A stretch of 64,000 bases of DNA, taken from positions 32,001 to 96,000 of IMG/VR virus record IMGVR_UViG_3300021961_008712. One strand, written 5' to 3'. A program made the translations under genes and the position numbers. Below, piece by piece: positions 20,454 through 44,408 of the stretch (the first letter of the stretch is position 1; each line of letters starts with the position of its first letter). The stretch is from a virus. Under the pieces are notes generated by a model that worked only from the letters and a program-made list of their open reading frames with translations, was not told the DNA's origin and made no database searches.

Positions 20454-20650
20454 GTGCACAAACAGAAATTAATTTAGATCAAGAAAAACTTCTCATTGAA
20501 GAGAGAAAAGTTAAAGCATTAGAAAAAATTGCTATGTCTTTAGACGCATTAACTGTATGGTTTGAAGAAATAGATAAAGAAGATTGGGATAGTAGAATCC
20601 AATTCTATTTAGCGGAATGGCATAAAAATCTTGTAGAAGGACAAAAATAG
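20450..20650 (+). CDS. Small hypothetical protein
   Basis: ATGA-coupled 66-aa ORF. Confidence 0.6.
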   Translation: MSAQTEINLDQEKLLIEERKVKALEKIAMSLDALTVWFEEIDKEDWDSRIQFYLAEWHKNLVEGQK

Positions 20651-20651
20651 T

Positions 20652-22049: not shown

Positions 22050-23461
22050 AATTAGGAGTATGTGTTCCGTACAGAAATAGAGAAGCTCACTTAAATGAGT
22101 TTGTACCGAAAGTAGGGAAGTACTTAAAAAGTCAAGGTATAGACTTTTGTATGTATTTTGCTCATCAGGTAGATGATAAACTTTTTAATAGAGGAGCTAC
22201 CAAAAATATTGCTGCTAAACATGCATTTCAAGACGGATGTGATTATATAGTATGGCATGATATAGATATGATACCTGAAGAAAATGGAGGAGCAGATTAT
22301 AGTTTTCCCACAGAAGGCCCTAGACATATTGCTACTCAGATTTCTCAAATGGATTACCAGCTTAAGTATCATGAATACTTTGGAGGAGCAGTTTTATTCA
22401 GCAAAGAACAAGTACTAGCTACTAATGGGTATTCAAATGACTACTGGGATTGGGGAATGGAAGATGATGATTTATTTTGGAGATGTCAGTTAGAAGGGCT
22501 TACAAATCAGACTTATATAGACAAAAAAATTGAAGGTCAGTATTTTAAAAGATTTGATGGAGATAAATCATTTATAAAAGTTCCATTTCAGAGAGAGATG
22601 AGATCCTTAAATTCTAGATCTCATACACTTTCTGTACTACTCCGTGCTAGGCAACAACCAGAAAAAAATCCTATATTTCTTATTGGAAGTAATAAAAGAA
22701 AGTATGTAGAATATCCTGTTGTTAGAGTGAAAGGGTACGACTACGGAATTGGATTTAACAACTCAAGAACAGTTTCTCTAACCTATTGGAATACATTCCA
22801 TCAACATAACTACATGTGGGTTAAAAGGTACGATGAGCAATGGACTTGGGTAACAGCTGTATTCGATAGTTTTGAAAGAAAATCTCACTTCTACCTGAAC
22901 GGCTCAGAGGTTGATTCTAGAGGAGGTTATGGTACGCATTCACCATTATCGTTTACTGGAAGACTTAAAAATTACGGTACAGAAGATTGGTACATAGGAA
23001 CCTCACCTTCAGAACCAGATGATAGTACAGTTAAGTACTTTAAAGGAGATATTGCAAAAGTATATGCCTGGAAGCGTCCTCTTTCTACAAAAGAAGTGGC
23101 AAATTTACATAATGAACTACCTACTGATGATTTAGTTATTGATCTAGATTTTAACAATCCTAAATCAGAATTTTTTGAATACGGTACAGAAGATAGAAAA
23201 GAAGATATATTAGTACCTAATTCTATTTTACCACATAGAATAGAAGGAAAGTTTAGATGTTTACCTCATCCTGATGAAGGTATAGTAAATGGAAAATTTG
23301 TCAAAGGTGAAACAACTGCTAGAAACGAACAAAGATATGTTCTTCAAATGCAGCAAGAAAAAATAAATTATAAAGAAGACGGTATAAAGCAAGTTCAATA
23401 TGAATTAGTTAGCGAAGAGCTGCTTACTCCTTGGGCTAAAATGATTAATATTAAATTATGA
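22046..23461 (+). CDS. Second GT7 with inserted LamG/ConA-like domain
   Basis: VPYRNR, FNRG, WHDID and GYSNDYWDWGMEDDD. Insert includes FYLNG...FKGDIAKVYAWKRPLS. Confidence 0.88.
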   Translation: MKLGVCVPYRNREAHLNEFVPKVGKYLKSQGIDFCMYFAHQVDDKLFNRGATKNIAAKHAFQDGCDYIVWHDIDMIPEENGGADYSFPTEGPRHIATQISQMDYQLKYHEYFGGAVLFSKEQVLATNGYSNDYWDWGMEDDDLFWRCQLEGLTNQTYIDKKIEGQYFKRFDGDKSFIKVPFQREMRSLNSRSHTLSVLLRARQQPEKNPIFLIGSNKRKYVEYPVVRVKGYDYGIGFNNSRTVSLTYWNTFHQHNYMWVKRYDEQWTWVTAVFDSFERKSHFYLNGSEVDSRGGYGTHSPLSFTGRLKNYGTEDWYIGTSPSEPDDSTVKYFKGDIAKVYAWKRPLSTKEVANLHNELPTDDLVIDLDFNNPKSEFFEYGTEDRKEDILVPNSILPHRIEGKFRCLPHPDEGIVNGKFVKGETTARNEQRYVLQMQQEKINYKEDGIKQVQYELVSEELLTPWAKMINIKL

Positions 23462-24837
23462 CATCTCAAGAAGTAAAAGATAAATTAGATAAGGTAGGTT
23501 GTGGATTCTGTTTAGCAAAATGGACTCAAGTAACTATGCACCTTTCTATGGGAATGACTCATTCTTGTCACCACCCTTCTCCTCACAAAATAGGGTTAAA
23601 CGAGATTAAAAGAAATCCTACTGCGCTTCATAATACAAAGTTTAAAAAACTTAAAAGAAAAGAAATGCTTGAGGGAAAAAAACCTCAAGAGTGTAACTAT
23701 TGCTGGAATGTTGAAGATAATTCTAATTCATTTTCTGATAGAGTATTTAAATCATCAGAACCTTGGTCAATTAAGAGTTACGATGATATAGTAAATTCAC
23801 ATTGGAGAGATGATTTTAATCCTAGGTACGTAGAGGTTGCTTTCTCTAATACTTGTAATTTCAAATGCGCTTACTGTGGTCCTCAATTCTCATCTAAGTG
23901 GGTAGATGAAATAGAAAAACACGGTCCGTATCCCACTTCCACTAATTTTAACGGCATCGAACACCTCAAGGCAAAAAATGAAATGCCTTATAAGCACTCA
24001 GAAGATAATCCTTATCTAGATGCATTTTGGGAATGGTGGCCAAGTTTGTATCGTGATTTGCATACTTTTAGAATTACAGGTGGAGAGCCTCTACTTGCCA
24101 AGGACACTTTTAAAGTTCTAGATTATATTATAGAACAAGAAGAACCTAACACAGAATTAGCATTATCTATAAACTCTAATTTAGGAATACCAGATAACTT
24201 ACTTGATAAATTTATTGCTAAAGCTAAGATATTGTGTGAACAAGATAAGGTGAAAGAGTTAGTAGTCTTTACATCTGTAGAAGCTAAAGGTAAGCAGGCT
24301 GAATATACAAGATTCGGTTTGGAGTATGATAAATTTTGGCAAAACGTAGATAAGATATTAACGGAGCTACCTAAAGTAACGGTTAATATTATGGCTACCT
24401 TTAATGCACTGTCTGTCTTCACATATAGCGATTTAGTCGATAAGGTATTTGAAATGAAGAAAAAACACCACAATGGTAAACGTTATTCCATTTCTGCTGT
24501 ACAATTAGATACTTCGTACTTACGTTGGCCTAATCACCTTTCTGTTCGTATATTAGATGAAGAGCATAAAGAGTATATACTCCAAGCTGCTAAAAAAGCA
24601 CTATACTATGGACAGAGAGAATTTTCTCATAACACATACGGATTTACAAACGTAGAGATACAGAAAATTAAAAGAATATACGACTATGCTAAAGGTCATA
24701 GCGTTACATACGATAAACAAAAAAATATAGATGACTTTATTATATTTGTAGACGAATTAGATAAACGAAGAGGTACAAATTTCTTAGAGACATTCCCTGA
24801 ACTAAAAGAGTTTTATGCTAGAAATAAAAGAGGGTAA
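23458..24837 (+). CDS. Radical SAM enzyme with N-terminal Cys-rich (twitch-like) domain
   Basis: CNFKCAYC and TGGEPL. N-terminal FCLAKW..SCHH..CNYCW. Confidence 0.9.
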   Translation: MTSQEVKDKLDKVGCGFCLAKWTQVTMHLSMGMTHSCHHPSPHKIGLNEIKRNPTALHNTKFKKLKRKEMLEGKKPQECNYCWNVEDNSNSFSDRVFKSSEPWSIKSYDDIVNSHWRDDFNPRYVEVAFSNTCNFKCAYCGPQFSSKWVDEIEKHGPYPTSTNFNGIEHLKAKNEMPYKHSEDNPYLDAFWEWWPSLYRDLHTFRITGGEPLLAKDTFKVLDYIIEQEEPNTELALSINSNLGIPDNLLDKFIAKAKILCEQDKVKELVVFTSVEAKGKQAEYTRFGLEYDKFWQNVDKILTELPKVTVNIMATFNALSVFTYSDLVDKVFEMKKKHHNGKRYSISAVQLDTSYLRWPNHLSVRILDEEHKEYILQAAKKALYYGQREFSHNTYGFTNVEIQKIKRIYDYAKGHSVTYDKQKNIDDFIIFVDELDKRRGTNFLETFPELKEFYARNKRG

Positions 24838-25402
24838 GCCATGGGTCTTTTGGCCAAGCCATATATGCGATACCTTTCCAGAAAAACCTGCAAATAAGGT
24901 TATGACTGGAGATCAGGAATTTGAAGTATATGTAGATTTAAAGTTAAATAAGACTGAGAAAGTAATTGGAACCTTATTTACTCTGCTTCCACATTATACA
25001 GCTATGGATATATATGAAGGCCGTTTACTCTTTACTATGATGAATCAAGATAGAGAAACAACCTATTGGGATTTACCCCAACCTATATATGATGATTTAA
25101 GATTAAGAATATTGTGGAAACATGTCCCAAATAAAACTTTCACAGTATTTATTAATAGTAGACAAGTTCATGAAGTAGACTTAACTGAGAAAGCATTTGC
25201 CACAGAAGACGATCCTCACATAATCTTCGGCGCAGGAAACTTTCCTAAAAATGGCTACAACTTGAACTACACTGATATAGAGTTATACGAATTTAAGGTT
25301 ATGCAAAATAATCAATTACTTTGCCACCATACTTTTGAAGACTTTATATTTGACAAATCAGTAGATATTACTGATAATTGTAATTTTATGAATAAACTGT
25401 AA
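24815..25402 (+). CDS. Hypothetical beta-sandwich (LamG/ConA-like) protein
   Basis: VFIN, IIFGAG and D.TDNCN beta-rich pattern. Confidence 0.45.
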   Translation: MLEIKEGKPWVFWPSHICDTFPEKPANKVMTGDQEFEVYVDLKLNKTEKVIGTLFTLLPHYTAMDIYEGRLLFTMMNQDRETTYWDLPQPIYDDLRLRILWKHVPNKTFTVFINSRQVHEVDLTEKAFATEDDPHIIFGAGNFPKNGYNLNYTDIELYEFKVMQNNQLLCHHTFEDFIFDKSVDITDNCNFMNKL

Positions 25403-26155
25403 ATGAAAAAGTTAATAGTCTGTGGTGATTCGTATATGGCTGCTACGCAGGATCTTCCTGATAGAGCAGATTGCCTAGGTGAAGGACATTTTACTCAAAT
25501 ACTTGCTAAAGAATTAAACTTAGAGTACGACACTTTTGCTAGAGGCGGGTCATCTAACTTTCTTATTTACCTTCAAGTAAAAGAAGCAATTAAACTAAAA
25601 CCAGACCTCATTATGGTAGGGTTTACAGACAGTAATAGAGTAGAGATTTTAAACGCAGAATACTACAATAAGGATTTAGATGGTAATAGTATTGATGTTT
25701 ATCAATTTAACTATCATGAGTACCCTGATTTATCTACTGCATTAAGAAAAGAAAAGTGGAATAATAAACCAAGGTATATTTCTACATCTGTAATTAACGT
25801 AATAGATTTCCCAGAAAATTTTGAAGACAAAGGCAGGCTTTTTAGTGATAATAATTTGAAAATATATAAGGATTATTTTACTTCATTCTGGAGCCCTTCT
25901 ATTCAATCTTTATATAGTAATATATTGATGAATCATACTATAGATTTATTAAATAAGTCTAAGATAGAGTATTATATACTAGGACTAGGAGACCCTACGG
26001 ATGATCGTAGAGATAAAAGGGGAAGTAAAAATCTTAACCCACAAAATCAACCTGGCGGAGGACCCTACAGATGGCATACCACTGCAGAAACTCAAAACAT
26101 ATTAGCAAAAAATTGGATTAACTATTTTAAAGACTTATGGCAGATAAACAACTAG
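25403..26155 (+). CDS. SGNH/GDSL hydrolase-like protein
   Basis: VCGDSY, ARGGSSN and C-terminal WH. Confidence 0.65.
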   Translation: MKKLIVCGDSYMAATQDLPDRADCLGEGHFTQILAKELNLEYDTFARGGSSNFLIYLQVKEAIKLKPDLIMVGFTDSNRVEILNAEYYNKDLDGNSIDVYQFNYHEYPDLSTALRKEKWNNKPRYISTSVINVIDFPENFEDKGRLFSDNNLKIYKDYFTSFWSPSIQSLYSNILMNHTIDLLNKSKIEYYILGLGDPTDDRRDKRGSKNLNPQNQPGGGPYRWHTTAETQNILAKNWINYFKDLWQINN

Positions 26156-27657
26156 TAGAGTGGAGAGATAAACACCTCAATTCGGTAAGTAAAAGCTTTT
26201 GTGCTGCTAAGTGGTATAATGCTTCTTTACACCTAGGCCATGGATTTACTAATTCATGTCATTTACCTCTACCCCACCCTATTGATCTAGAGGAGATTAA
26301 AACTAATCCTTCAGCATTACATAATACTATGTTTAAGAAGAAGATTAGAAAAATGATGCTTGAAGGTACAAGACCTGCTGAATGCTCGTATTGCTGGAAA
26401 GTAGAAGATATAGGTGCAAATTCGATAGGTGATAGGGTATTTAAAAGCCGTATATACTCTGATGAAGATATAGCTAAGTTAGCTGAACTTCCTTGGGATG
26501 CAGATGTAAATCTTAAAACAGTAGAAGTTTCTTTTGATAGAACATGTAACTTTGCTTGCTCATACTGTAATACTGGATACTCTACTACATGGGCTAAAGA
26601 CATAGAAGAGAACGGACCTTATCAAAAATTTAAGACTACATCTGCAGGAGCTTATCATAGTGATGGTTCTTGGGCAGACGTATTTGGTAAAAATAATAAA
26701 GATAATCCATATGTAGATGCATTTATAGAATGGTGGCCAGAACTTGCACCTGAACTACAAGAGTTAAGAGTTACTGGAGGAGAGCCATCTGCATCATTTA
26801 ATTTTTGGAAGTTCTTAGAGAAAATGCAAGAAGTACCTGCACCTAATCTAAGATTAGCTGTTAACTCTAATTTAGGAGTAAATGATAAATTAATTAATAA
26901 GTTAATTGATATGTCTAATACTCTCCCTATTAAAGAGTTTGATCTATATACTTCCTGTGAGGCATTTGGTATTCAAGCAGAATATATTAGACATGGATTA
27001 GTTTGGGACGTATGGAGAAATAACTTAGTACGAATGATTGAAGAAGGAAACTTTAGACAAATTATTTGTATGATGACTATTAATTCTCTATGTCTTTACT
27101 CTATTACTGAATTCATGGATGATATGTTTACCCTTAAAGAGAAGTACGGCATGAATAAACCAGGTATAGATTTAAATATTCTTAGATGGCCTGCTTTTAT
27201 GTCACCACTAAACCTACCAGACTCAGAGAAGAAAAAACTTCATAAGAAATTAGCTGATTGGTATGAGATTAAAAAAGAGCACCCTCTTATGATGGATCAT
27301 GAAAAAGCTCAAATAGAAAGATTAATAGACTATATTGAAGTAGTAGATCAAGGACACGTAACAACAGAAGATGATAAAGAAAAACACTTCCATGATTTTA
27401 AGTCTTTTTACGAACAGCATGATGCAAGAAGAGGTTCTGATTTTAGAAAAGCATTCCCGGACCCAGATTTACTAGAGTGGTATGACTCCATTGAAGTAGA
27501 CCAGTCTATACCAGATGTACCGGTTAATGATGGACGAATTACCCATTTTGAATCAGGTGAATACGAACCAGATAAAAATAAACCAAAAGAGCTACCTCCT
27601 GCTATAAAAGAAAGAAACGAAAAACAAAGTAAAGTAAAATGGCAAAAGCTCCTGTAA
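26137..27657 (+). CDS. Radical SAM enzyme, paralogue of 23458
   Basis: CNFACSYC and TGGEP. N-terminal FCAAKW..SCH..CSYCW. Confidence 0.9.
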   Translation: MADKQLVEWRDKHLNSVSKSFCAAKWYNASLHLGHGFTNSCHLPLPHPIDLEEIKTNPSALHNTMFKKKIRKMMLEGTRPAECSYCWKVEDIGANSIGDRVFKSRIYSDEDIAKLAELPWDADVNLKTVEVSFDRTCNFACSYCNTGYSTTWAKDIEENGPYQKFKTTSAGAYHSDGSWADVFGKNNKDNPYVDAFIEWWPELAPELQELRVTGGEPSASFNFWKFLEKMQEVPAPNLRLAVNSNLGVNDKLINKLIDMSNTLPIKEFDLYTSCEAFGIQAEYIRHGLVWDVWRNNLVRMIEEGNFRQIICMMTINSLCLYSITEFMDDMFTLKEKYGMNKPGIDLNILRWPAFMSPLNLPDSEKKKLHKKLADWYEIKKEHPLMMDHEKAQIERLIDYIEVVDQGHVTTEDDKEKHFHDFKSFYEQHDARRGSDFRKAFPDPDLLEWYDSIEVDQSIPDVPVNDGRITHFESGEYEPDKNKPKELPPAIKERNEKQSKVKWQKLL

Positions 27658-28676
27658 ATTATAACTATATAAGAATACCAGAGCCCTGGGGTGGAGGACA
27701 TACCCCATGGGATACGGGGTTGGGTAATAGATTGTTACACTGGGATGTTGTATATGCTATTAATAAAAGTAATAACTATAAATTTTTTCTAGAGGTAGAA
27801 GCAAGATATTGGCGTGAATTAGAGTTTATAGAACTACCTGGTACTCGTCCGTTGAACATTAATACAGGTACAAATGAGGAGCTTCAAAAACTACTTCACA
27901 AATATGACTTTAATATAAAAAGTCAAAAAATAACCCCACTAAGTCCTCTAGGTGATGATATTTTAGATCAATTTAGTGTTGATGAAGAATATAAACTGGA
28001 ACCAAAAAACTACTATACTTGTTTTGATTGGAAATTTCTTCAACTAACTGAAAAAATAGCAATAGATAACACAGGTTTAAGTAGAATTGCTATTAAAAAT
28101 AAAATACTTTTTAATACAATTAGAAGTATGGGAGTAAATTGTGTAGGAATACATTTACGTAGAGGCGCAGGAGTATTTAAAACACCAGCGCAACTACTAG
28201 AGCTTCCTAAAACAGTACAGAATAATCCATTTTTACAAACACTTCATCCTACTACTATATATAAGTACTGGAATAATAACGTATATGAATCGTTAATAAG
28301 GGAAATCAGGCAAATAGAACCTAATCAAAAATTTTATATAAGCTGTGATTTACAAGTTGGAGAGTATGAATTTTTAAAAGAAAAATTTGGGGATAATATT
28401 AAAACCCGACAAGATGTAATTAGAGATTTACCCGATTCAATTATACAGGGAATAGACTTTACAGATGTAAAAGATGAAAGAAGAATTGCATTAGAGAGTG
28501 TAGTAGATATGATGGTACTTTCATACTGTGATTTTATTGTTGGAGCACAGCACTCAACCTGGCTAGATTCTATTCAAAGAATAAGACAAGTGCCCCACGG
28601 TTTTATCAATCAGTCGAGAGATATACTTTTGAGACATTATAATAAGGCAAAAATAAATTCAAGAGGAGTATTATGA
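27639..28676 (+). CDS. Fucosyltransferase-like (GT11/GT23, NodZ-type)
   Basis: GLGNRL, GIHLRRG, FYISCD and DMMVLSYCDFIVG...STW. Confidence 0.75.
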   Translation: MAKAPVNYNYIRIPEPWGGGHTPWDTGLGNRLLHWDVVYAINKSNNYKFFLEVEARYWRELEFIELPGTRPLNINTGTNEELQKLLHKYDFNIKSQKITPLSPLGDDILDQFSVDEEYKLEPKNYYTCFDWKFLQLTEKIAIDNTGLSRIAIKNKILFNTIRSMGVNCVGIHLRRGAGVFKTPAQLLELPKTVQNNPFLQTLHPTTIYKYWNNNVYESLIREIRQIEPNQKFYISCDLQVGEYEFLKEKFGDNIKTRQDVIRDLPDSIIQGIDFTDVKDERRIALESVVDMMVLSYCDFIVGAQHSTWLDSIQRIRQVPHGFINQSRDILLRHYNKAKINSRGVL

Positions 28677-29275
28677 GTTTTGGAATAGTAGAAAGTTTCG
28701 AAAATAAAGTCGCTGAATTCTTTGGTGCTACTTATGGAGTTGCCGTAGACTGCTGTACTCATGGATTAGAACTTTGTTTAAGGCATACAAAAGCAGATAG
28801 AATACTAGTACCAACACATACATATCTTTCGGTACCTATGTTATCTAATAAGTTAGGTATAGGTAGAATGTGGAAAGAAGAACGGTGGAAAAACTACTAT
28901 AATATAACACATAGAATAATCGATGCAGCAGTCTTATGGGAAGAAGGTTCTTACGTAAAGGGTTCTCTTATGGTTCTAAGCTTTCAATTTAAAAAACATC
29001 TCAGCTTAGGTAGAGGAGGAATGATTTTAACAGACAGTGTAGAAGACTGGTTAGCTTTAAAAGCGATGTCCTACGATGGTCGCTCACCAGAAGACATACC
29101 GTGGGCAGACCAAGAGATAGAGACAATAGGGTACCACTATTACATGACCCCTGAAACTGCATACTCAGGTTTGCAAAAAATGAATAACCCAGAATTTATA
29201 CAAAGAAAGCCCAAAGAATGGAGCTGGGAGGATTATCCAAACATAATGAAGCTAAAAGTATTTAAAGATGGTTAA
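28673..29275 (+). CDS. DegT/DnrJ/EryC1/StrS-family PLP aminotransferase (short, 200 aa)
   Basis: FENKVAEFFG...AVDCCTHGL, IIDAA and SFQFKKHL..GRGGMIL (PLP lysine). Confidence 0.85.
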   Translation: MSFGIVESFENKVAEFFGATYGVAVDCCTHGLELCLRHTKADRILVPTHTYLSVPMLSNKLGIGRMWKEERWKNYYNITHRIIDAAVLWEEGSYVKGSLMVLSFQFKKHLSLGRGGMILTDSVEDWLALKAMSYDGRSPEDIPWADQEIETIGYHYYMTPETAYSGLQKMNNPEFIQRKPKEWSWEDYPNIMKLKVFKDG

Positions 29276-30278
29276 TGTACATAATGAATATAGCAAATTA
29301 AAAGAGGTAATAGTTGGTACTATAGATAATGCTAACATGCCTAAACATGGATTTGATCTTCATGCTATTAATTACGCAGACAAAGATACAATTCCTAGTA
29401 ATGAACTTGGCTTTTTTGATCAAAAAGTGTATGAAGAAACAGCTGAAGACTTAGAAAATCTCGTTAGTATATTGAAAGACTGTGGAGTAGTTGTACATAG
29501 ACCTTCAACTTTAGACACAACAAAAACCGTTTCTAACGGACACTGGACCACAGACCAGTACTATACGTTCTGCCCAAGAGATACTATGACAGTTATAGGA
29601 AATACCATTGTGGAAGCACCTATGACGTTAAGGTCTAGACAATTTGAAACAGATGCTTATAGAGAAATTTTTCACCACTACATGGTAGGTGGGGCAAAGT
29701 GGGTATGTGCACCTAAACCTAGACTCTTAGATAACTGTTACCAAAGAGATGATCTATCTAAACTAACATTAACTAACACAGAACCCGTATTTGATGCTGC
29801 AAATATTTTAAGACATAATAGAGATATTTTGTACCTAGAATCTAATACAGGTAATTTTGCAGGATATTTATGGTTAAAGAATCTACTTGGTGATGAGTAT
29901 AATGTACACTTTTTACAAAACATGTATTCTTACTCTCACATAGATTCAACTATTGCTATTCTTAGAGATGGGTTAGTTTTAGTAAATCCATCTAGAGTAA
30001 ATGAAAAAAACCTCCCTGCATTATTTAAAAACTGGGATGTGATATACTCACCAGAAATGGTAGATATAGGATACCACAAAGTAGAAAGAGCTTCTGTATG
30101 GGTCGGTATTAATTTACTCTCAGTAGATGAAAATACTGTTATAGTAGATAATAGACAAACAGAACTAATAAAGGTGTTAAAAAAATATAAAATAGAAGCA
30201 TTAGATGCAAAAATAAGACACTCTAGAACATTAGGGGGTTCTTTTCACTGCGTTACTTGCGATACAATAAGAGAATGA
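29268..30278 (+). CDS. Amidinotransferase (glycine/inosamine-phosphate amidinotransferase family)
   Basis: NEYSKLKEVIVG, CPRD, FDAAN, HIDS and GGSFHCVTCD (Cys-His-Asp triad). Confidence 0.92.
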   Translation: MVNVHNEYSKLKEVIVGTIDNANMPKHGFDLHAINYADKDTIPSNELGFFDQKVYEETAEDLENLVSILKDCGVVVHRPSTLDTTKTVSNGHWTTDQYYTFCPRDTMTVIGNTIVEAPMTLRSRQFETDAYREIFHHYMVGGAKWVCAPKPRLLDNCYQRDDLSKLTLTNTEPVFDAANILRHNRDILYLESNTGNFAGYLWLKNLLGDEYNVHFLQNMYSYSHIDSTIAILRDGLVLVNPSRVNEKNLPALFKNWDVIYSPEMVDIGYHKVERASVWVGINLLSVDENTVIVDNRQTELIKVLKKYKIEALDAKIRHSRTLGGSFHCVTCDTIRE

Positions 30279-30279
30279 T

Positions 30280-31149
30280 ATGAAGTTTGTTTTAATAGGA
30301 GGAGCAGGTTATATTGGAAGCCAATTAACTGTTGCATTAGATACAAGAGGGCACGAAGTTACAGTTATAGATAATTTTACCTATAATCAGTCTCCTTTCA
30401 TGCCACCAAAGGTAAAAGTAATAAACGATACAGTTGAGAATATAAGAACACATCAAGCAGATATTGCCTCTGCTGATTATGTATTCTTTATGGCATCACC
30501 TAGGTTAAATGAAATTAATGATTTACCTCAACCTTTACCTTTTGTAGATGCTTTAAACGATACAGTAGATTGCTTAGGAGAAAAAACAGAATTAATATTC
30601 TTTAGTAGCTGTTCTGTGTACGGATACAATGCACAGATAGTTGATGAGACATCTCCTACTAAAATTACCTCTCTATATTCCAAACTGAAAGTTGACTCAG
30701 AAAACAATTTAATATATAAAGGAGATAATAGACTTAAAATAATTAGACTATCTACTCTGTACGGACTTTCTAGTGTTTCTAGAAATGACCTACTCATTAA
30801 TAACTTTATCAGAGATATAACATTTAGTAAATTTTTAGAAGTATACGATCCATTAGCTTGGAGACCTAATATATTTTTAGAGGACTTAATAAATATTTTA
30901 ATAGATCTGTCGGAACATAAACGATTTAGGCCTATATTGAATATTGGCTTTAATGAGTTAAATACTACTAAGCAAGATTTAATACTAACATTAGTCTCTA
31001 AAAATAAATTTGATTTTAGTGTAAAATATTACGCCCCACAAGATAGTAGAAGCTATAAAGTTAAATTTGATTTATTAAAAACTCTATTAACTTTTAGTAC
31101 ATATACCTCTTATGAAGATGGTATAAATAAAATACGTGAACAATTATGA
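30280..31149 (+). CDS. NAD-dependent nucleotide-sugar epimerase/dehydratase
   Basis: GGAGYIG, SSCSVYG and YSKLK (YxxxK). Confidence 0.88.
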   Translation: MKFVLIGGAGYIGSQLTVALDTRGHEVTVIDNFTYNQSPFMPPKVKVINDTVENIRTHQADIASADYVFFMASPRLNEINDLPQPLPFVDALNDTVDCLGEKTELIFFSSCSVYGYNAQIVDETSPTKITSLYSKLKVDSENNLIYKGDNRLKIIRLSTLYGLSSVSRNDLLINNFIRDITFSKFLEVYDPLAWRPNIFLEDLINILIDLSEHKRFRPILNIGFNELNTTKQDLILTLVSKNKFDFSVKYYAPQDSRSYKVKFDLLKTLLTFSTYTSYEDGINKIREQL

Positions 31150-32162
31150 AAGGAACAGTTTTAATAACAGGGGTAGCAGGACTTCTAGGAAGTAGATTAG
31201 CTGACCACCTAATAGAAAAATACCCAGACCTTAAAGTCGTAGGTATTGATAATCTATCAGGTGGTTTTATGGAGAATGTAAACAGTAAAGTAAACTTTCA
31301 TAATATAGATTTAGCGGAAGATAATATTAACGGTGTTTTCTCTTGGCATAAACCAGAATATGTTTTTCATTTTGCAGCATACGCAGCAGAAGGACTTTCT
31401 CCTTTTATTAGAACATACAATTACAAGAATAATACAATAGCTACTGCTAAAGTAATAAATGCATGTATTAGAACAGGAGTAAAACGTTTAGTATTTACTT
31501 CTTCTATGGCTGTTTATGGACACGGATGGGAAGGTAAAAGACCTTTTGAGGAAGGTGATATACCTAAACCTATTGATCCTTACGGTATTGCAAAATATGC
31601 TTGTGAAATGGATATACAAGTAGCAGGTGAACAGCACGGATTAGACTGGTGTATAATTAGACCTCATAACGTATATGGAGTTAAACAGAACATTTGGGAT
31701 AAATATAGAAATGTATTAGGTATATGGATGTACCAGTACTTAAATGACCAGCCAATGACGATTTTTGGTGATGGTCAACAAACTAGAGCATTTAGCTATA
31801 TTGACGATTGTTTAGAACCACTAGAAAGAGCTGCAATCAAACCAGAGGCGTCTAAACAGATTATCAATCTTGGAGGTACTAAATTTACTTCAATTAATGA
31901 AGCTAATGCTATTTTAAGAGATGTAATTAAAAACGGTACCGTAGAGTATAGAGAAGGTAGACATGAAGTTAAAGATGCATATCCTACATGGGCTAAGTCT
32001 CAAGAAATTTTAGGCTATGAACACAAGACAGACTTACATACAGGTCTTTATAAAATGTGGGATTGGGCACAAAAACAACCTAAAAGAAGTAGATTCTTTT
32101 GGAATGAATATGAATTAGATAAAGGAATATATAGCTTCTGGAAAAATGAACCTGGTATTTGA
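31146..32162 (+). CDS. NAD-dependent nucleotide-sugar epimerase/dehydratase
   Basis: TGVAGLLG, SSMAVYG, YGIAK, NVYG and GDGQQTRAF. Confidence 0.92.
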   Translation: MKGTVLITGVAGLLGSRLADHLIEKYPDLKVVGIDNLSGGFMENVNSKVNFHNIDLAEDNINGVFSWHKPEYVFHFAAYAAEGLSPFIRTYNYKNNTIATAKVINACIRTGVKRLVFTSSMAVYGHGWEGKRPFEEGDIPKPIDPYGIAKYACEMDIQVAGEQHGLDWCIIRPHNVYGVKQNIWDKYRNVLGIWMYQYLNDQPMTIFGDGQQTRAFSYIDDCLEPLERAAIKPEASKQIINLGGTKFTSINEANAILRDVIKNGTVEYREGRHEVKDAYPTWAKSQEILGYEHKTDLHTGLYKMWDWAQKQPKRSRFFWNEYELDKGIYSFWKNEPGI

Positions 32163-33468
32163 AGATTTAAAATTTCAACTAAACCTCTATAAGGAGGATG
32201 ATAAAATACTAAGCGGTGAAGACCGTGTATGTGTATCTCCATATGCTAATAGAGTAAATATAATGAGAGATAGACAGCATTCTCTCCATCAATTAGATAA
32301 TAAGCTAATATACGAAAATGACATATTTGAAGTTACTAAATACCACGCAGATGATATCCCAGATGGAATATCGTATATTATTCCGGTAGGCGTTCATGAA
32401 TCGCCCCAAAGCTGGGCAGGATATAAAAACGTGAGTTCTATATTCGACCTTATAAGTCCTCTATATTTAAAGCATTTAAGAGAAGGAAGAGCATATATTA
32501 TGTTTGATAGTTCCTTAGAAGGATATCATGATGATGCTTTTTTTGAATTTGCTCATTCTGAATGTAATAGACTTAAAATACCAATAAAGAATATAATTTG
32601 GGTATCTGGAAATTCTATCATAGAAGATAGAGCTTTTGAGTGGAGTAACATGACTGGCAAAGAATGCATTAGAGTTATAGGATATAGTCACTTTCAATAC
32701 GACATTACAGATAACATAGATTTCTTTAATGCAAAGAGACAGTACATACCTACTTGGCAAGACCAGTTTGACTATAAAACAAGAAATTACGAATTAATTA
32801 AAGATTATAATTTTCTAAACCGTAAACCTAGGTCACATAGAATTGCATTTTTCAATATGCTTTTTCACAACGGACACCTAAGTAACGGACTAGTAAGTAT
32901 GAATCCTTGGGAAGGAAATAAGGACTGCTATATAGACGGATGGTATGCTGATCCAATACAGCTTGAACATTCCCTAGAATATACTCCTTTGAGATGGAAC
33001 GGAGAAGATAATATTAGTAATGCTCAAGATAAAATTAATAGGTTAAACGAAACAGCAATGCTTAACTCCTGGTTCACAGTTGTTAGTGAAGCAAGATTTG
33101 ACGACTCAGAAGGGACTATATTTTTATCTGAAAAAACTTTTAAGCCTATAGCCTGTTGTCATCCTTTTGTTATATTAGGTAATAAAGGTAGCTTGAAGGA
33201 ATTGAGAAAATTAGGATTCTACACTTTTGATTTTCTTATTAATGAGACTTATGATGAATTAGATAATATCGAAAGACTAGAAGCAATAGAAAAAATAATC
33301 AATGACTTTAGACATATGGATAACCATTTAGAATGGTTCCAATGGATGAGACCTAGACTAGAATACAACAGACTGGTCTTAAAGTTTAACAGTACAATGA
33401 AACCACCCCCAGGTTTCCATATATTAAATGAATTATGTGGCACTATCATAGAGAAAAACTTAAGTTAA
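32146..33468 (+). CDS. Putative GT-B glycosyltransferase (GT10-like SEK motif), paralogue 1
   Basis: FLNRKPRSHR...VVSE...FLSEKTFKP...HPF...GFYTF..NETYD. Confidence 0.55.
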   Translation: MNLVFEDLKFQLNLYKEDDKILSGEDRVCVSPYANRVNIMRDRQHSLHQLDNKLIYENDIFEVTKYHADDIPDGISYIIPVGVHESPQSWAGYKNVSSIFDLISPLYLKHLREGRAYIMFDSSLEGYHDDAFFEFAHSECNRLKIPIKNIIWVSGNSIIEDRAFEWSNMTGKECIRVIGYSHFQYDITDNIDFFNAKRQYIPTWQDQFDYKTRNYELIKDYNFLNRKPRSHRIAFFNMLFHNGHLSNGLVSMNPWEGNKDCYIDGWYADPIQLEHSLEYTPLRWNGEDNISNAQDKINRLNETAMLNSWFTVVSEARFDDSEGTIFLSEKTFKPIACCHPFVILGNKGSLKELRKLGFYTFDFLINETYDELDNIERLEAIEKIINDFRHMDNHLEWFQWMRPRLEYNRLVLKFNSTMKPPPGFHILNELCGTIIEKNLS

Positions 33469-34376
33469 CTAAAAATTCCAAAGCCCTAATAGTGTTAGGA
33501 GATTCTTTTGTCGAAGGACAAGGAGCGTTGACTGACTATGTATGGGAAAAATACGGCTGGTCTGAAGAAAACTTTAACCGTATAGGATGTGTCAAAGATG
33601 GGACTTGGAATCCTGAGCATGAGTATATTAGAACTGAAGAAATGAATAATGCATTTCCAAGTGTTATATGTCGGAATTATCTGAAAGATTGGACACCGGT
33701 AAATTTAGGATTTAGGGGTAATGGAAACCGAGCTGGAGTAAAAGCACTAACCACATGCTACCCAGATCTCAATTTACATCTTCCTAAAGAAAAAATTGTA
33801 ATATTTCTTGTAGGTCAGTTATGTAGGTTTGATTTTGTTGCTAAAGATTATGATTCACATTCTATGTGGCATACTATTTGGCCTCATGCTGATCCCGTTA
33901 CTGATAATATTGGAATAAAACATTTGTGGAATGGTTACGCTACTGAAATACATAACGATTTAACAGAAATGTTAGAACTTATATTTTTAGTAAAGGAATT
34001 ACAAATGTGGTGTGCATTACATAATGCTAAGTTAGTATTAATTAATTCTTTTGAATACAATTTTGATAAAACTCATTTTCTAAAAGTAGCACAGAGCCAT
34101 AACTACCCTAAGTACGTAAAACTATTAGTTGATGAATTTCCTTGGGACCTAGTAATGAAACATCCTAACGGAAAACGAGCACTAATAGATGAATTATTAG
34201 ATGCAGAAGGAAGATTAGATCTAACTGATAGCCAGCATAAATTTTATTTTTGGGCTAAAGAATATAAAAAAGGTACCCCTAACGGATATTTTACACCATG
34301 TGCTCACCCAACTATTAAAGGGCATGAACTTTATGCAAAACTAATTTACCAACACTTAAAAGAAAACGTACTTTGA
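33435..34376 (+). CDS. SGNH/GDSL hydrolase-like protein
   Basis: VLGDSFVEG, NLG..GNGN and AHPTIKGH. Confidence 0.7.
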   Translation: MWHYHREKLKLTKNSKALIVLGDSFVEGQGALTDYVWEKYGWSEENFNRIGCVKDGTWNPEHEYIRTEEMNNAFPSVICRNYLKDWTPVNLGFRGNGNRAGVKALTTCYPDLNLHLPKEKIVIFLVGQLCRFDFVAKDYDSHSMWHTIWPHADPVTDNIGIKHLWNGYATEIHNDLTEMLELIFLVKELQMWCALHNAKLVLINSFEYNFDKTHFLKVAQSHNYPKYVKLLVDEFPWDLVMKHPNGKRALIDELLDAEGRLDLTDSQHKFYFWAKEYKKGTPNGYFTPCAHPTIKGHELYAKLIYQHLKENVL

Positions 34377-35749
34377 TGGAAACATACCTACCGGTCGGTA
34401 AAGATACATTTAAATGGGAAGACTTTAGACTTACTTTAAGTATGGAAGGGTATGATTCTATTTATGGGGGTCCAAGACCTAATGGAACTTCCCGTACTTG
34501 GTACTATAAAGAGACAGGTAAAATTCAACCTCCATACACATTAGGTAGATGGAACTTTTTTGATGAAGAAGGTAAGTGGTTTCAAAACGATATGCTTCGG
34601 TTACAGCATCAACCGCATGTTATAGATCAACACCACTGTCATTATAAATTTAAAGAAGAATTAAAGGAAGGAGAAGAACACCTTTACATTATTACTGTTT
34701 TTAACCCTCACTATTTTAACATAAATAGAGAACTAGGATTTTCAGTAATTGATGAAAGATACAAAAAAGATGTAATTGAAGGTCGATGTGCTATTGTTAT
34801 ATTCTACCCCTGGGAAGGTTATTCCGGGATGGAAGGTAACAACGACTTTTTAATTGTTGAGGAATGGAGAAAAAAAGCTAAATTCCCTGAAGGATCTGTT
34901 CATTTTTTTACAGGTAATTTAACTGCAAAATATCATCCACATACTAAAGAGAGTGGAACAGTGTTTCATACTTTAAGTACTTTTGATAATTGGAACAGTG
35001 ATACAGCAGATTACCCTTTAATTGGGTTTGAACCAGAAGAGAATAAATACCTTTTTCTTTCCTATAATAGAAACCCACGTCAACCTAGAGTATACTTAGG
35101 GGCAAAATTACACGAAGAAGGTTTATTAGATAAAGGCAAAGTAAGTCTCGGAAAACCAGAGTGGTTAGATTCTAATGTAGGCAATACAATGAGACATGAT
35201 GGTATTCGAGATAAAGACTGGATTTGGCTATCTAAAAATCTTCCTATTGAATTAGGAAAAAATTTACATTTTAACTTAGCTTGTAACGTAACCCATGAAG
35301 ACTATATTAAAACGTTTTGTTCAATAGTAACAGAAACATTAGTCGAACCAGGAACTATTTTTATCTCAGAAAAAACTTGGAAGTGTTTTCAAGTTGGGCA
35401 TCCTTTCTTTTTAGTAGGTAATAGATTTACACTAAACCACCTTAGGAATGAAGGATATCAAACTTTTGGTGAATGGTTTGACGAATCATATGATAATATA
35501 GACGACTATAGATTACGAATTAATTCTATTATAAGTGAGATTAGGAGGTTAGAAAAGTACTCTATTGAAGATTTGAAAACTATTAGGAGTGAAATGAAAG
35601 ACATTTTAGAGTTTAACAAAAAACTACACTATAGACAGTTAGTAGATAAATGGGGCTTCCACCAGTCTAATAAGCCGGTATGGGTACTAAAAGAATTAGA
35701 TAAGATCTATCAAAAACTCGTTAATAGAAACAAAATTGTGTTACTATAA
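34373..35749 (+). CDS. Putative GT-B glycosyltransferase, paralogue 2
   Basis: FLSYNRNPRQPR...IVTET...FISEKTWK...HPF...GYQTF..FDESYD. Confidence 0.55.
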   Translation: MMETYLPVGKDTFKWEDFRLTLSMEGYDSIYGGPRPNGTSRTWYYKETGKIQPPYTLGRWNFFDEEGKWFQNDMLRLQHQPHVIDQHHCHYKFKEELKEGEEHLYIITVFNPHYFNINRELGFSVIDERYKKDVIEGRCAIVIFYPWEGYSGMEGNNDFLIVEEWRKKAKFPEGSVHFFTGNLTAKYHPHTKESGTVFHTLSTFDNWNSDTADYPLIGFEPEENKYLFLSYNRNPRQPRVYLGAKLHEEGLLDKGKVSLGKPEWLDSNVGNTMRHDGIRDKDWIWLSKNLPIELGKNLHFNLACNVTHEDYIKTFCSIVTETLVEPGTIFISEKTWKCFQVGHPFFLVGNRFTLNHLRNEGYQTFGEWFDESYDNIDDYRLRINSIISEIRRLEKYSIEDLKTIRSEMKDILEFNKKLHYRQLVDKWGFHQSNKPVWVLKELDKIYQKLVNRNKIVLL

Positions 35750-37044
35750 TGAAAAAGCAAAAAATACTTCTTAGTGTAGAACCATGGGATAGTATATTAG
35801 GAACTAATAGACCTAATGGTACATCTAGAACATGGAATTATCAAGAGACAGGTACTCCATCTATACTGTATACAATTACTGAGGACTTACTTAATAGCTC
35901 TCCTGATGAAATCTTTCATAATACCACCCTTTTTATGTCCTCAGATGATTTTCATAAAGTAGAAATACATGAAATTGAAAATCAGAAACACCTATATGTT
36001 ATTCGAGTACTTAATCACCAATTTTTTAAACTAAACCTTAATACTGGATTCAGTGTAATATCTCCCAAAGTACTAGTAGACGTAAAAGAAGGAAAAGCAA
36101 GAATAATAATAGAAATGACATCAGAAGGTTTATACTTTTCTCATGCGGGTACTGAATTTTCTGTTATTGAGAGATGGAGAGTTAAAGAAGGATTACCTCC
36201 TCATAGCGTAACTATACTTTCCGGAAATTTGCTTTGTCAAAAAATTGTACAGGAAGCAGATTTAAAATTGAATGCATATCCTATATCTTCTTTTGAAGGG
36301 TTTTTCCCATTGTCTGAAGAAGATAAAGATCCTAATAAAATAGTTGACTATATTCCTTGTAATGATGCAAATATTTTCTTATCTTATAATAGAGCACAAC
36401 GATTACATAGAGCTTATTTAGTAGCTAAATTAAATGAAAATAATTTACTAAATAGAGGATTAATAAGCTATCAGATATCCGAGGCAGATTTTAGTAGATT
36501 AACACCAAATCTATACGATAGAGAAAAATGGAGAAAATTAAAATTATTAGGACCTAAATTTATAGATTCTGATCAACTAGAAAATCTGGCACAAAATACA
36601 AACATATCTCACTACGAAAAAACATTCTTAAGCATAATTACAGAAACAACTATTAACCCAGGATGCATCTTTTTTTCGGAAAAAATATTTAAGCCAATGG
36701 CGTTTGGACATCCTTTTTTACTTTTAGGAAACCCCCACTCTTTGAGTAAGTTAAAAGAAATGGGGTATAAAACGTTTGATACATGGTTCGATGAATCTTA
36801 TGATAATGAAGTAGATGAATTTAAACGTACAGAATTGATTGTAAAAGAAATAATAAAGTTAAAAAATCTTACCCAAGAAAAATTAAGCTCCATTAGGGAG
36901 GAGATGAAAGATGTTTTACTTCATAATAAAAGACACTATCTAGAACAAGCAGCTCTAAAGTTTAAGCATAGATACTACCTTCCTATAGAAGGAGAAATCA
37001 AAAACGAATGGAAAACTCTCTGCGAGGACTCTAAACTAATATGA
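35749..37044 (+). CDS. Putative GT-B glycosyltransferase, paralogue 3
   Basis: FLSYNRAQRLHR...IITET...FFSEKIFKP...HPF...GYKTF..FDESYD. Confidence 0.55.
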   Translation: MKKQKILLSVEPWDSILGTNRPNGTSRTWNYQETGTPSILYTITEDLLNSSPDEIFHNTTLFMSSDDFHKVEIHEIENQKHLYVIRVLNHQFFKLNLNTGFSVISPKVLVDVKEGKARIIIEMTSEGLYFSHAGTEFSVIERWRVKEGLPPHSVTILSGNLLCQKIVQEADLKLNAYPISSFEGFFPLSEEDKDPNKIVDYIPCNDANIFLSYNRAQRLHRAYLVAKLNENNLLNRGLISYQISEADFSRLTPNLYDREKWRKLKLLGPKFIDSDQLENLAQNTNISHYEKTFLSIITETTINPGCIFFSEKIFKPMAFGHPFLLLGNPHSLSKLKEMGYKTFDTWFDESYDNEVDEFKRTELIVKEIIKLKNLTQEKLSSIREEMKDVLLHNKRHYLEQAALKFKHRYYLPIEGEIKNEWKTLCEDSKLI

Positions 37045-38933: not shown

Positions 38934-38942
38934 ATAAACAAA

Positions 38943-40007: not shown

Positions 40008-40008
40008 G

Positions 40009-41091: not shown

Positions 41092-41096
41092 AAAAG

Positions 41097-41125
41097 TTGT
41101 TTTTTTGATATTTATTTTATATATT
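41097..41125 (+). promoter_or_regulatory. Sigma70-like promoter TTGTTT-N17-TATATT
   Basis: Exact 17-nt spacer, intergenic, upstream of the dehydrogenase. Confidence 0.6.
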
Positions 41126-41149
41126 GTTATTAACTAAAACACAGTTTTC

Positions 41150-43927: not shown

Positions 43928-44408
43928 TGAAGAATGTATCCAACTAATACAACAAAGTGAATCTCATGATTGGCATAGAGTAGAAAGAATTTTAACTAAG
44001 TACTTTATTAACTACAACGTCACGTTACCAGAATCTATTATTAGTAAAGTAAAAGAGTACACAAGAAAAGAACTGAACATTGAACTTTTAAACCTCGACT
44101 TCAAAGACTCAGCATTTTTGAAATATACAAAAGGAGACGGTTTCGAAAGACATAATGATAACAGGTCAGATAATCCACAAAATGCAAATAGGGTATATAC
44201 ACTAAACATAAGATTAAATAATGAATACAAAGGTGGAATTTTCTACTTAGATGATAAACCGTACATTAAAGAGGTAGGAGAAATATATTCGTACCGTTCT
44301 ACTATGTTTCATCATGTAAGTGAGGTTTCCGAAGGAACTAGGTATTTACTTGCTCTATTTATTAGAGTAAAAGATTACGATTACGAAAAAGCAAAGCAAA
44401 TTATATAA
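43914..44408 (+). CDS. 2OG-Fe(II) oxygenase (P4H-like)
   Basis: KY..GD.F..HND, L..EYKGG.F and HHVSEV.EGTRY. Confidence 0.88.
   Translation: MKLTNEECIQLIQQSESHDWHRVERILTKYFINYNVTLPESIISKVKEYTRKELNIELLNLDFKDSAFLKYTKGDGFERHNDNRSDNPQNANRVYTLNIRLNNEYKGGIFYLDDKPYIKEVGEIYSYRSTMFHHVSEVSEGTRYLLALFIRVKDYDYEKAKQII

Follow-up and report, generated by a model that had tools for sequence, protein, structure and literature searches.

What might a phage build with an aminotransferase and an amidinotransferase that are encoded side by side within its virion structural genes? This question is raised by a 64,000-nucleotide stretch of DNA, called the window here, which sits within a 169,750-bp IMG/VR virus record. 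Its phage origin is confirmed by the major head, tail fibre and tail sheath genes in the window. The source is an uncultured marine phage and kin of Flavobacterium phage immuto, with whose sheath protein the tail sheath shares 65% identity. A sequence-only reading had proposed that four adjacent, mostly overlapping genes with intact catalytic motifs convert a keto sugar into an amino sugar and further into a guanidino sugar. Arrangement and motifs are confirmed by the open reading frames, by family matches and by alignments. The four genes are:

28673..29275, + strand: half-size DegT-family PLP enzyme ("mini-DegT", 200 aa), a putative sugar aminotransferase (Pfam PF01041)
29268..30278, + strand: StrB1-type L-arginine amidinotransferase (AT, 336 aa; PDB 1bwd, E 2.6e-92)
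30280..31149, + strand: SDR1, a divergent extended SDR (289 aa), accessory, candidate sugar C4 oxidoreductase (Pfam Epimerase, E 2e-16)
31146..32162, + strand: SDR2, a GalE-like NDP-sugar 4-epimerase-type SDR (338 aa), accessory (Pfam Epimerase, E 5e-46)

The mini-DegT and AT genes overlap by 8 nt (ATGGTTAA), AT and SDR1 are separated by 1 nt, and SDR1 and SDR2 overlap by 4 nt; the upstream gene (27639-28676) shares 4 nt with the start of the mini-DegT ORF.

The Half-Size DegT Enzyme

The first gene had been read as a DegT aminotransferase. Family and PLP lysine are borne out, while a full two-domain enzyme is not encoded: with 200 aa the protein is half the size of the two-domain fold-type I architecture (~360-400 aa). 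The Pfam model DegT_DnrJ_EryC1 matches with 57.7 bits (cut-off 19.8) in two stretches, covering profile positions 26-78 and ~163-256 of 360, which means that ~30 residues at the N-terminus, ~55 in the interior and the entire C-terminal domain are missing. In full-length DegT enzymes, the N-terminal segment and the C-terminal domain help nucleotide binding. The PLP lysine Lys108 in SFQFKKH and Asp84 in IIDAA are invariant across 25 homologues, as are Thr29, Thr50-Tyr51, Ser103 and GRGG113-116. Lys108 is aligned to the Schiff-base Lys of 7b0m, and the family carries Lys at the catalytic position, not the His of ColD-type dehydratases; an Asp of the Asp84 type contacts the pyridine nitrogen of PLP in DegT/DnrJ/EryC1/StrS aminotransferases. 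The GxNxR segment conserved in DegT enzymes reads GYHYY in the mini-DegT. Its AF2 model (pLDDT 88 overall) resembles the large PLP domain of GDP-perosamine synthase, the top structural match, and of ArnB (TMq 0.63-0.69), and spans this large domain only (TMt 0.36-0.39).

The mini-DegT could be a decayed or non-catalytic remnant, its adjacency to AT being historical and AT lacking a partner amine, and ~45% of the normal DegT length is indeed gone while model confidence falls at Lys107-109. Such decay is very improbable for a protein from a very large phage family with thousands of sequences of ~195-232 aa with 56-85% identity and invariant PLP-site residues, that is modelled with good overall confidence and that is surrounded by conserved partner genes. 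No full-length close relative was found for it, and the rare longer relatives are fusions to methyltransferase domains. To our knowledge, enzyme activity has not been reported for any mini-DegT; from family and active-site residues we infer that it acts as an aminotransferase.

The Amidinotransferase

The second enzyme is an amidinotransferase (pentein fold), as had been read from the sequence, and is of the StrB1 and not of the GATM type. It aligns nearly without gaps to StrB1 (query residues 1-334 to chain residues 3-338 of 1bwd; 312.9 bits, E 2.6e-92), compared to ~1e-57 for HsvA, SxtG and GATM, and the HsvA and SxtG alignments require insertions. The Pfam ADI model reaches 19.6 bits, below its cut-off of 22.8. 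AT has the full set of catalytic and arginine-binding Asp, His and Cys residues: the triad Cys328/His224/Asp176 as well as Asp105 and Asp226 show no variation among 20 homologues and align to those of StrB1. The flap that precedes His224 is short, YSYSH in the phage AT and YASTH in StrB1, instead of the DPNPM of human AGAT (flap described in PMC4887976). AT also lacks an N-terminal extension. In a phylogenetic tree, AT groups with Streptomyces-type sequences and not with the metazoan GATM group (SH-aLRT 95). It forms one 50%-identity cluster whose next relatives reach at most 49%; this clade is tight, has members from viral or metagenome sequence only, and diverges by at least 50% from any cellular sequence.

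Judged from sequence, the similarity to StrB1 leaves the acceptor of AT unfixed, since cellular proteins that are about as close to AT as StrB1 is (43-47% identical) occur in non-sugar contexts, adjoining either an AMP-binding/citrate-synthase fusion or an ATP-grasp ligase together with an MFS pump. These small-molecule contexts of the closest cellular relatives, and the many primary amines used by members of the family (PMC4887976), would fit an auxiliary metabolic enzyme that modifies free amino acids or polyamines to give guanidinoacetate, homoarginine or amidinated polyamines, comparable to GATM, AmtA and HsvA, and that is unrelated to its neighbours. The StrB1-like rather than GATM-like flap and indel pattern, the restriction of the clade to viral and metagenome sequence in glycan islands, and a gene order with mini-DegT that is strict over distant phage lineages including T4-like cyanophages make this quite improbable. 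We infer that L-arginine is the donor and a sugar amine the acceptor of AT.

Linkage of the Amidinotransferase to the Mini-DegT

In every IMG/VR and cyanophage AT locus for which upstream sequence exists (37/37), the mini-DegT gene is located 5' of AT on the same strand. The two genes overlap by 4 nt in 13 of these 37 loci and by 8 nt in the window, and cyanophage-type loci place them 2-5 kb apart. This linkage is one-way: AT goes with mini-DegT, and most mini-DegT loci lack AT. Among the best mini-DegT loci in which a mini-DegT ORF was called (79), AT is present in 8. The other 71 loci show what usually stands beside a mini-DegT, namely GDP-mannose 4,6-dehydratase (Gmd; 58 loci, mostly as the next gene), a hexapeptide-repeat protein (18 loci) or a methyltransferase-like protein (20 loci). 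Since mini-DegT is accompanied there by a dehydratase and an N-acetyl- or N-methyltransferase, an amine-tailoring enzyme is its expected partner, and the position of AT in this usual tailoring slot supports the conversion of a sugar amine into a guanidine. AT is the amine-modifying enzyme adjoining the mini-DegT in a genome in which neither a PglD-like acetyltransferase (PglD_N domain) nor a second DegT gene was found, the mini-DegT being the sole one.

The AT-less loci, with mini-DegT, Gmd and often the hexapeptide-repeat protein, resemble the GDP-perosamine/GDP-N-acetylperosamine pathway (Gmd, Per, PerB). In contrast to that pathway, Gmd is missing from the AT loci (0/37) and from the whole 169,750-bp genome, where a phage Gmd query hit nothing but SDR2, at 23% identity (E 2e-5); moreover, AT replaces the N-acyltransferase and the aminotransferase lacks its C-terminal domain. 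Immuto, the nearest cultured relative, has a mini-DegT (29% identical to that of the window), a PglD-like N-acetyltransferase and an SDR, as in the bacillosamine-type triad of PglF dehydratase, PglE aminotransferase and PglD acetyltransferase; the window has the order mini-DegT, AT, SDRs and no PglD-like gene. The proposed conversion of a keto sugar via an amino sugar to a guanidino sugar is thus partly supported: it gains from the AT/mini-DegT linkage and the amine-tailoring position, but its first part does not stand in the same way, as a clear keto-sugar-making enzyme was not identified and Gmd is missing.

The Two SDR Genes

The two epimerases had been counted as module members and turn out to be accessory, as they are missing from most AT loci and confined to the closest relatives. 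Both exceed the cut-off of Pfam PF01370. SDR1, with the NAD-site motif GGAGYIGS (GxxGxxG) and the catalytic Y133-x3-K137, matches 6vo6 best in the PDB (E 2e-17), followed by UDP-glucuronate decarboxylases, and its homologues are restricted to a few loci (L012, L016, L017, L021 and L022-24). SDR2, with TGVAGLLGS and Y146-x3-K150, has a UDP-glucose 4-epimerase (4zrm, E 2e-47) as its top PDB match, followed by UDP-GlcA and UDP-GlcNAc 4-epimerases, and is present in part of the AT loci only. The absence of these candidate suppliers of a keto sugar from many AT loci is an observation against the pathway. The source of the keto sugar in AT loci may differ from that in Gmd-type loci.

The Conserved Core and Other Possible Acceptors

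The conserved core of the AT loci consists of two N-twitch radical SAMs, a fucosyltransferase-like glycosyltransferase, mini-DegT and AT. Directly upstream of the module the window contains:

23458..27657 (23458-24837 and 26137-27657), + strand: two paralogous N-terminal-twitch radical SAMs with two small ORFs between them (NCBIfam NF033640)
27639..28676, + strand: fucosyltransferase-superfamily-like glycosyltransferase (345 aa; atlas look-alikes, IHLRRG motif)

The glycosyltransferase has no match in Pfam, PHROG or NCBIfam; its atlas look-alikes are FUT8/NodZ/O-FucT/GT11 clusters (score 0.95-0.96, TM 0.58-0.59), which serve as a lead only. A homologue lies 5' of mini-DegT in nearly all AT loci. 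The radical SAMs match NF033640 (N_Twi_rSAM) with E-values of 9e-103 and 3e-93 and carry CxxxCxxC at residues 133 and 137, respectively. The pair is found in every AT locus whose upstream sequence is long enough and is missing from the Gmd-type mini-DegT loci.

Because AT is tied to the N-twitch radical SAMs just as strictly as to the mini-DegT, its acceptor could be a radical SAM product. AT would then still serve the same glycan pathway but would modify some other amine, be it such a product, be it an aminocyclitol, be it a substituent of the glycan that is an amino acid or a peptide, while the mini-DegT amine would be used separately. In many loci, one or two genes (a 230-284 aa protein, sometimes with a B12 radical SAM) lie between mini-DegT and AT, and the top structural matches of the radical SAM are, weakly, the peptide maturases SuiB and SkfB. 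Furthermore, Campylobacter phages (CP220, F379; Firehammervirus) encode an AT close to their tail genes, surrounded by radical SAM genes and a sugar transferase, and have no DegT-like gene. However, the Campylobacter AT is just 27% identical to that of the window and belongs to a separate clade, and the radical SAMs of these phages are unrelated to those of the window by BLAST. The overlapping stop and start codons of mini-DegT and AT in 13 loci and the window, as well as the position of AT in the slot held by N-acetyl- and N-methyltransferases in AT-less loci, also speak against another amine, which we regard as unlikely but worth keeping in mind.

The Glycan Island

The core is embedded in a larger run of genes, which includes two further enzymes of relevance:

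17960..44408, + strand: island for building and tailoring a glycan with soluble proteins, flanked by tail-fibre genes and the tail sheath gene
37041..38933, + strand: cobalamin-dependent radical SAM, KedN5-family-like C-methyltransferase (Pfam B12-binding and Radical_SAM)
41150..42319, + strand: NDP-sugar (UDP-glucose-type) 6-dehydrogenase (Pfam UDPG_MGDP_dh domains; TIGR03026, E 8e-43)

Besides the module genes, the island contains DUF6734, a methyltransferase, a GT2, two GT7-LamG fusions and an unannotated paralogue family. Its genes lie on a single strand with frequent overlaps, promoter- and terminator-like sites are not more frequent in it than expected by chance, and none of the 29 ORFs spanning 16906 to 44664 has a transmembrane segment. 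The cobalamin-dependent enzyme matches NCBIfam NF033712 (E 4e-61), under the family cut-off, and a B12 radical SAM is located between mini-DegT and AT in several AT loci. The 6-dehydrogenase is shared by most AT loci at 64-84% identity.

StrB1, StsC/BtrR-type aminotransferases, twitch radical SAMs and B12 radical SAM methylases are families that recall aminoglycoside pathways, and in Synechococcus phage S-SCSM2R the homologous genes (AHBA_syn, radical SAM, inosamine amidinotransferase) are annotated as "antibiotic synthesis genes", an annotation that carries no experiment (PMC12801897). The mini-DegT and AT of S-SCSM2R are 51% and 43% identical to those of the window and likewise belong to one glycosyltransferase-rich run; they differ in being 2 kb apart and in having a radical SAM of a different, shorter type. 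That the module makes a diffusible secondary metabolite, aminoglycoside-like or other, in place of a glycan component is nevertheless improbable given the many glycosyltransferase-like genes of the island, its exclusively soluble proteins and its place within the virion structural block. Moreover, no cyclitol synthase, kinase, exporter or resistance gene was found among the Pfam-annotated island genes. Of the companions expected in a streptidine-type pathway, the cyclitol dehydrogenase, kinase and phosphatase, none was found among the Pfam- or NCBIfam-annotated island genes, ~12 of its ORFs being unannotated.

A close known parallel in chemistry is the streptidine branch of streptomycin biosynthesis in Streptomyces griseus, in which StsC and then StrB1, the L-arginine:inosamine-phosphate amidinotransferase, represent the same two families in the same order from keto group to amine to guanidine. 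StrB1 and the phage AT align end to end and have catalytic residues and the short flap in common. Unlike the streptidine genes, those of the phage lie in a glycan operon and not in an antibiotic cluster, and the aminotransferase is a one-domain protein of 200 aa. The annotated island genes also differ in lacking a cyclitol-forming enzyme, kinase or phosphatase, and a sugar is more likely than a cyclitol phosphate as the acceptor of the phage AT.

Proposed Pathway and Meaning

We tentatively favour, at somewhat less than even confidence, one co-translated operon of soluble enzymes that would make a decorated sugar chain containing a guanidino sugar. Within it, the mini-DegT/AT pair probably makes a guanidino group, which is positively charged, from the amine of a sugar. 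The mini-DegT would aminate a keto sugar, most probably a nucleotide-linked hexose at its C4 position. AT would take the amidino group from L-arginine onto its Cys328, with ornithine as the released product, and pass it on to the amine of the mini-DegT sugar, yielding the guanidino sugar. A glycosyltransferase of the island, the upstream fucosyltransferase-like enzyme being the first candidate, would attach this sugar to the glycan. The SDRs may act as lineage-specific helpers, SDR2 as a GalE-like 4-epimerase and SDR1 as a divergent oxidoreductase that may provide the keto sugar. That the guanidino residue changes binding to anionic surfaces, as the sequence-only reading had suggested, is speculation. 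The logic of converting a keto group into an amine and then into a guanidine is known; the variant encoded here would place it in a phage glycan operon and assign its amination step to a one-domain aminotransferase.

The Four Genes and Their Phage Setting

The sequence-only reading had placed four adjacent genes with intact catalytic motifs in this region, and ORF calls, Pfam searches and an alignment with StrB1 bear out both their positions and the named motifs:

28673–29275, + strand: half-size DegT-like protein (mini-DegT), 200 aa, Pfam DegT_DnrJ_EryC1 (57.7 bits)
29268–30278, + strand: StrB1-type amidinotransferase (AT), 336 aa, full-length alignment with the StrB1 structure (E 2.6e-92)
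30280–31149, + strand: SDR1, 289 aa, Pfam NAD-dependent epimerase/dehydratase
31146–32162, + strand: SDR2, 338 aa, Pfam NAD-dependent epimerase/dehydratase

The residues Cys328, His224, and Asp176 are present in AT, Lys108 and Asp84 in mini-DegT, and the motifs Y133xxxK137 and Y146xxxK150 in SDR1 and SDR2, respectively. The mini-DegT and AT reading frames overlap by 8 nt (ATGGTTAA), the junction between the gene at 27639–28676 and mini-DegT is an ATGA overlap, and promoters and terminators internal to the island show no excess over chance. The DNA is that of a phage: the window encodes a major head protein, an adaptor, a tail fibre and a tail sheath, and its source is a 169,750-bp IMG/VR record rated complete. 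The tail sheath shares 65% identity with its counterpart in Flavobacterium phage vB_FspM_immuto, and comparison with deposited phages at the DNA level gave two short matches only.

The Amidinotransferase Belongs to the StrB1 Type

AT aligns with StrB1 almost without gaps and scores 313 bits against it, compared with approximately 200 bits against HsvA, SxtG, and human and pig GATM. In human AGAT, a DPNPM flap closes the glycine site (PMC4887976); the five residues preceding the catalytic His are YSYSH in AT and YASTH in StrB1, in place of DPNPM. The AT family comprises approximately 2,200 clusters at 90% identity, every one of 336 aa, which merge into one representative at 50% identity, the next relatives being at most 49% identical. 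In a tree, the phage AT sequences form a clade (SH-aLRT 100) that joins six cellular relatives and further metagenomic clusters, among them the cyanophage type, in one group with SH-aLRT 95. The sister of this group contains a metazoan GATM, and the ATs of Campylobacter phages form a third, distant group. The phylogeny against StrB1 and GATM agrees with the scores in assigning AT to the StrB1 type, apart from metazoan GATM; homology does not determine the acceptor of AT.

The six cellular relatives, 43–47% identical and derived from Streptomyces, Nocardioides, Chloroflexota, Caldilineaceae, and Acidobacteriaceae, were the only ones returned by a pattern scan in which each of 185,579 prokaryotic species was represented by a single genome, and no close cellular copy of AT was found; as the patterns are clade-specific, this is weak evidence on the absence of a cellular origin. 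The Streptomyces relatives (loci L128:4960–9026 and L131:4948–9023) adjoin a fusion of AMP-binding and citrate-synthase domains of approximately 1000 aa, with the AT gene after it, and the relative in an Acidobacteriaceae MAG (L129:5606–9035) follows an MFS transporter and an ATP-grasp ligase. These genes probably belong to uncharacterised guanidino small-molecule pathways.

A DegT Protein Reduced to One Domain

Mini-DegT covers only positions 26–78 and about 163–256 of the 360-position Pfam model, and solved sugar aminotransferases align to it at their residues about 35–100 and 172–256. Missing from the protein, therefore, are some 30 residues at the N-terminus, a strand-helix segment in the interior and all of the C-terminal domain. 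This half size is not the result of decay, since the family is large, with at least 7,972 clusters of 195–232 aa and 56–85% identity, and since at least 590 IMG/VR loci encode a member; the residues of the PLP site are invariant across homologues, and the AlphaFold model is confident (pLDDT 88), its fold superposing on the large PLP domain in GDP-perosamine synthase, ArnB, and AHBA synthase (TMq 0.63–0.69). Longer close relatives are limited to 12 fusions; several of these add a methyltransferase domain, and none has the C-terminal domain of DegT enzymes. We considered whether a small neighbouring gene encodes the C-terminal domain of a split DegT, the candidates being a protein of approximately 138 aa, itself uncharacterised, upstream of mini-DegT in loci that carry a GDP-mannose 4,6-dehydratase (Gmd) and a 164–172-aa protein that many AT loci have after AT. 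No match to a DegT chain or a Pfam family was obtained for either, and the proposal was rejected as unsupported. Mini-DegT is the sole DegT gene in the genome. To judge from its catalytic Lys, which is His in ColD-type dehydratases, transamination is the reaction it most likely catalyses.

One-Way Genomic Linkage of the Amidinotransferase to mini-DegT

Gene contexts were drawn from IMG/VR loci, with a census of 35 loci around AT homologues and three loci of the cyanophage type. Mini-DegT lies upstream of AT on the same strand in all 37 loci for which upstream sequence was available, with a 4-nt overlap in 13, a spacing of 5 nt in three and of 0.7–5.3 kb in the remainder. The dependence runs in one direction: among the best 80 mini-DegT loci (one without a called mini-DegT ORF), AT is present in only eight. 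Of the 71 loci that lack it, 58 carry Gmd, which mostly follows mini-DegT directly (PF16363, E 1e-117; TIGR01472 at 385 bits, just below the 415-bit cut-off). A methyltransferase-like neighbour of mini-DegT, about 179 aa long, is present in 20 and a hexapeptide-repeat protein of about 176 aa in 18. Phage immuto has a PglD-like N-acetyltransferase and an SDR after its mini-DegT. These neighbours indicate that the mini-DegT family has two regular kinds of partner, one making a keto sugar and one tailoring the amine, and in AT loci it is AT that fills the tailoring position. In the mini-DegT tree, the association with AT was altered at least three times within a family of approximately 60%-identical members. 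The one-way dependence of AT on mini-DegT is the best available evidence that AT acts on the amine made by mini-DegT.

The mini-DegT family is very common on marine phage contigs, and in loci L045–L124 (e.g., L073:5043–7605 and L087:5084–7578) its usual place is immediately ahead of Gmd, accompanied by a hexapeptide-repeat or methyltransferase-like protein and, upstream, by the uncharacterised protein of approximately 138 aa. This arrangement looks like a minimal set for GDP-(N-acyl/methyl)perosamine, and a literature search found no paper on it.

Neighbouring Enzymes and the Source of the Keto Sugar

Gmd is absent from every AT locus, and neither Gmd nor a PglD-like acetyltransferase was found in the genome of this phage. 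The recurrent run of AT loci starts with a GT7-LamG fusion, an N-terminal-twitch radical SAM, a small ORF, a second such radical SAM, a homologue of the 27639–28676 gene and mini-DegT, continues, sometimes after a B12 radical SAM and/or a 230–284-aa protein, with AT, and proceeds downstream to an NDP-sugar 6-dehydrogenase, with the tail sheath gene last. In the window, three of these neighbours are as follows:

23458–24837 and 26137–27657: two paralogous N-terminal-twitch radical SAMs of the uncharacterised NF033640 family
27639–28676: putative fucosyltransferase-like protein, 345 aa, with an IHLRRG motif

The four-gene module claimed earlier does not extend to its two epimerases. Only the closest relatives (L012, L016, L017, L021) have both SDR1 and SDR2, a few further loci have SDR2 without SDR1, and many AT loci contain neither, so that the two SDR genes are accessory. 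SDR2 is closest to UDP-hexose and UDP-hexuronate 4-epimerases. SDR1 is divergent, its top solved relative being 6vo6 (E 2e-17), which we take to be Campylobacter jejuni Cj1427, in agreement with the deposit title, followed by UDP-glucuronate decarboxylases. Cj1427 is a GDP-heptose C4-dehydrogenase (PMC10680097). If 6vo6 is Cj1427, SDR1 could be the enzyme that provides this lineage with its keto sugar.

The protein encoded at 27639–28676, whose homologue is conserved directly upstream of mini-DegT in AT loci, matches no Pfam, PHROG, or NCBIfam family, and its atlas look-alikes of the FUT8/NodZ/O-FucT/GT11 kind (score 0.95–0.96) are a lead only. Transferases of the FUT8, NodZ, and O-FucT type use GDP-sugars. 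The pair of N-terminal-twitch radical SAMs is strictly tied to AT loci and absent from Gmd-type loci. A BtrN-like dehydrogenase activity of these radical SAMs was considered as a possible origin of the keto sugar: the structural matches of an N-terminal-twitch radical SAM model (pLDDT 83) were all of a generic radical SAM kind (TM at most 0.32; SuiB, SkfB, anSME, viperin, AprD4), BtrN was not among the top 50, and phmmer found no relative in the PDB, results that speak neither for nor against this origin. A cobalamin-dependent radical SAM at 37041–38933 is nearest to KedN5-family C-methyltransferases, below the family cut-off; its homologue sits between mini-DegT and AT in several related phages, a position that hints at C-methylation of the sugar on which these two enzymes would act.

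The interval 20652–23461 encodes tandem GT7 (beta-1,4-galactosyltransferase-like) enzymes that are conserved at the start of AT-type islands; a LamG/ConA-like lectin domain is part of each. Between 32146 and 41091 lies a series of unannotated proteins, 313–458 aa long and all related to one another (starting at 32146, 33435, 34373, 35749, 38943, and 40009), whose homologues differ in number and order among related phages.

Transmembrane segments are absent from the 29 ORFs between 16906 and 44664, and neither a flippase nor a polymerase gene was recognised among the annotated genes of the island, which suggests cytoplasmic assembly of the glycan, with a soluble molecule as its acceptor. The location among virion genes hints at virion proteins as the target.

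Amidinotransferases in Cultured Phages

Campylobacter phage F379 (L041, record 73818–92867) carries, next to baseplate genes, a distant AT (27% identity) surrounded by a nucleotide-sugar transferase gene and six genes for radical SAMs. This module looks parallel but unrelated. The radical SAMs of the Campylobacter phages are unrelated to those of the window, and a DegT gene is absent; a 173-aa ORF before the AT gene of F379 was considered as a hidden mini-DegT and rejected (hhalign probability 1%). For cyanophage S-SCSM2R, a homologous mini-DegT, a radical SAM and an "inosamine amidinotransferase" have been listed as "antibiotic synthesis genes" without experiments, and its virion proteome contains a second amidinotransferase (PMC12801897). 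Since this phage is cultivable and has homologues of both genes, the proposal set out below is directly testable.

Proposed Role and Significance

The sequence-only reading proposed a route from keto sugar to amino sugar to guanidino sugar for a phage glycan; this is supported in part, by a StrB1-type AT in strict linkage with mini-DegT. The most likely role of AT, at a likelihood that we place a little short of even, is to amidinate the amino group that a minimal aminotransferase would put on a sugar, both enzymes belonging to an operon for a phage glycan. The pair would then be a variant on known streptidine-type logic that recurs in marine phages. A wider proposal is more speculative and on balance rather unlikely: a natural guanidino sugar, for example a 4-guanidino-4-deoxy or 4,6-dideoxy hexose, would be produced by abundant marine phages through a one-domain PLP aminotransferase and a virus-specific StrB1-type AT and, still in the cytoplasm, be attached to something soluble, such as the virion proteins of the phage, resulting in a permanently cationic glycan. 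A phrase search of the literature for guanidino sugars in natural glycans returned nothing relevant, and the papers covered describe no such sugar in a glycan of a cell surface or virion.

If the proposal is true, a fold-type I aminotransferase could function on its large domain alone, which is relevant to enzyme engineering, and guanidino sugars, so far found in antibiotics, would have their first example in a glycan, with a widespread group of ocean phages as its makers. On the virion or host surface, a sugar with a permanent charge might then influence adsorption, aggregation or recognition.
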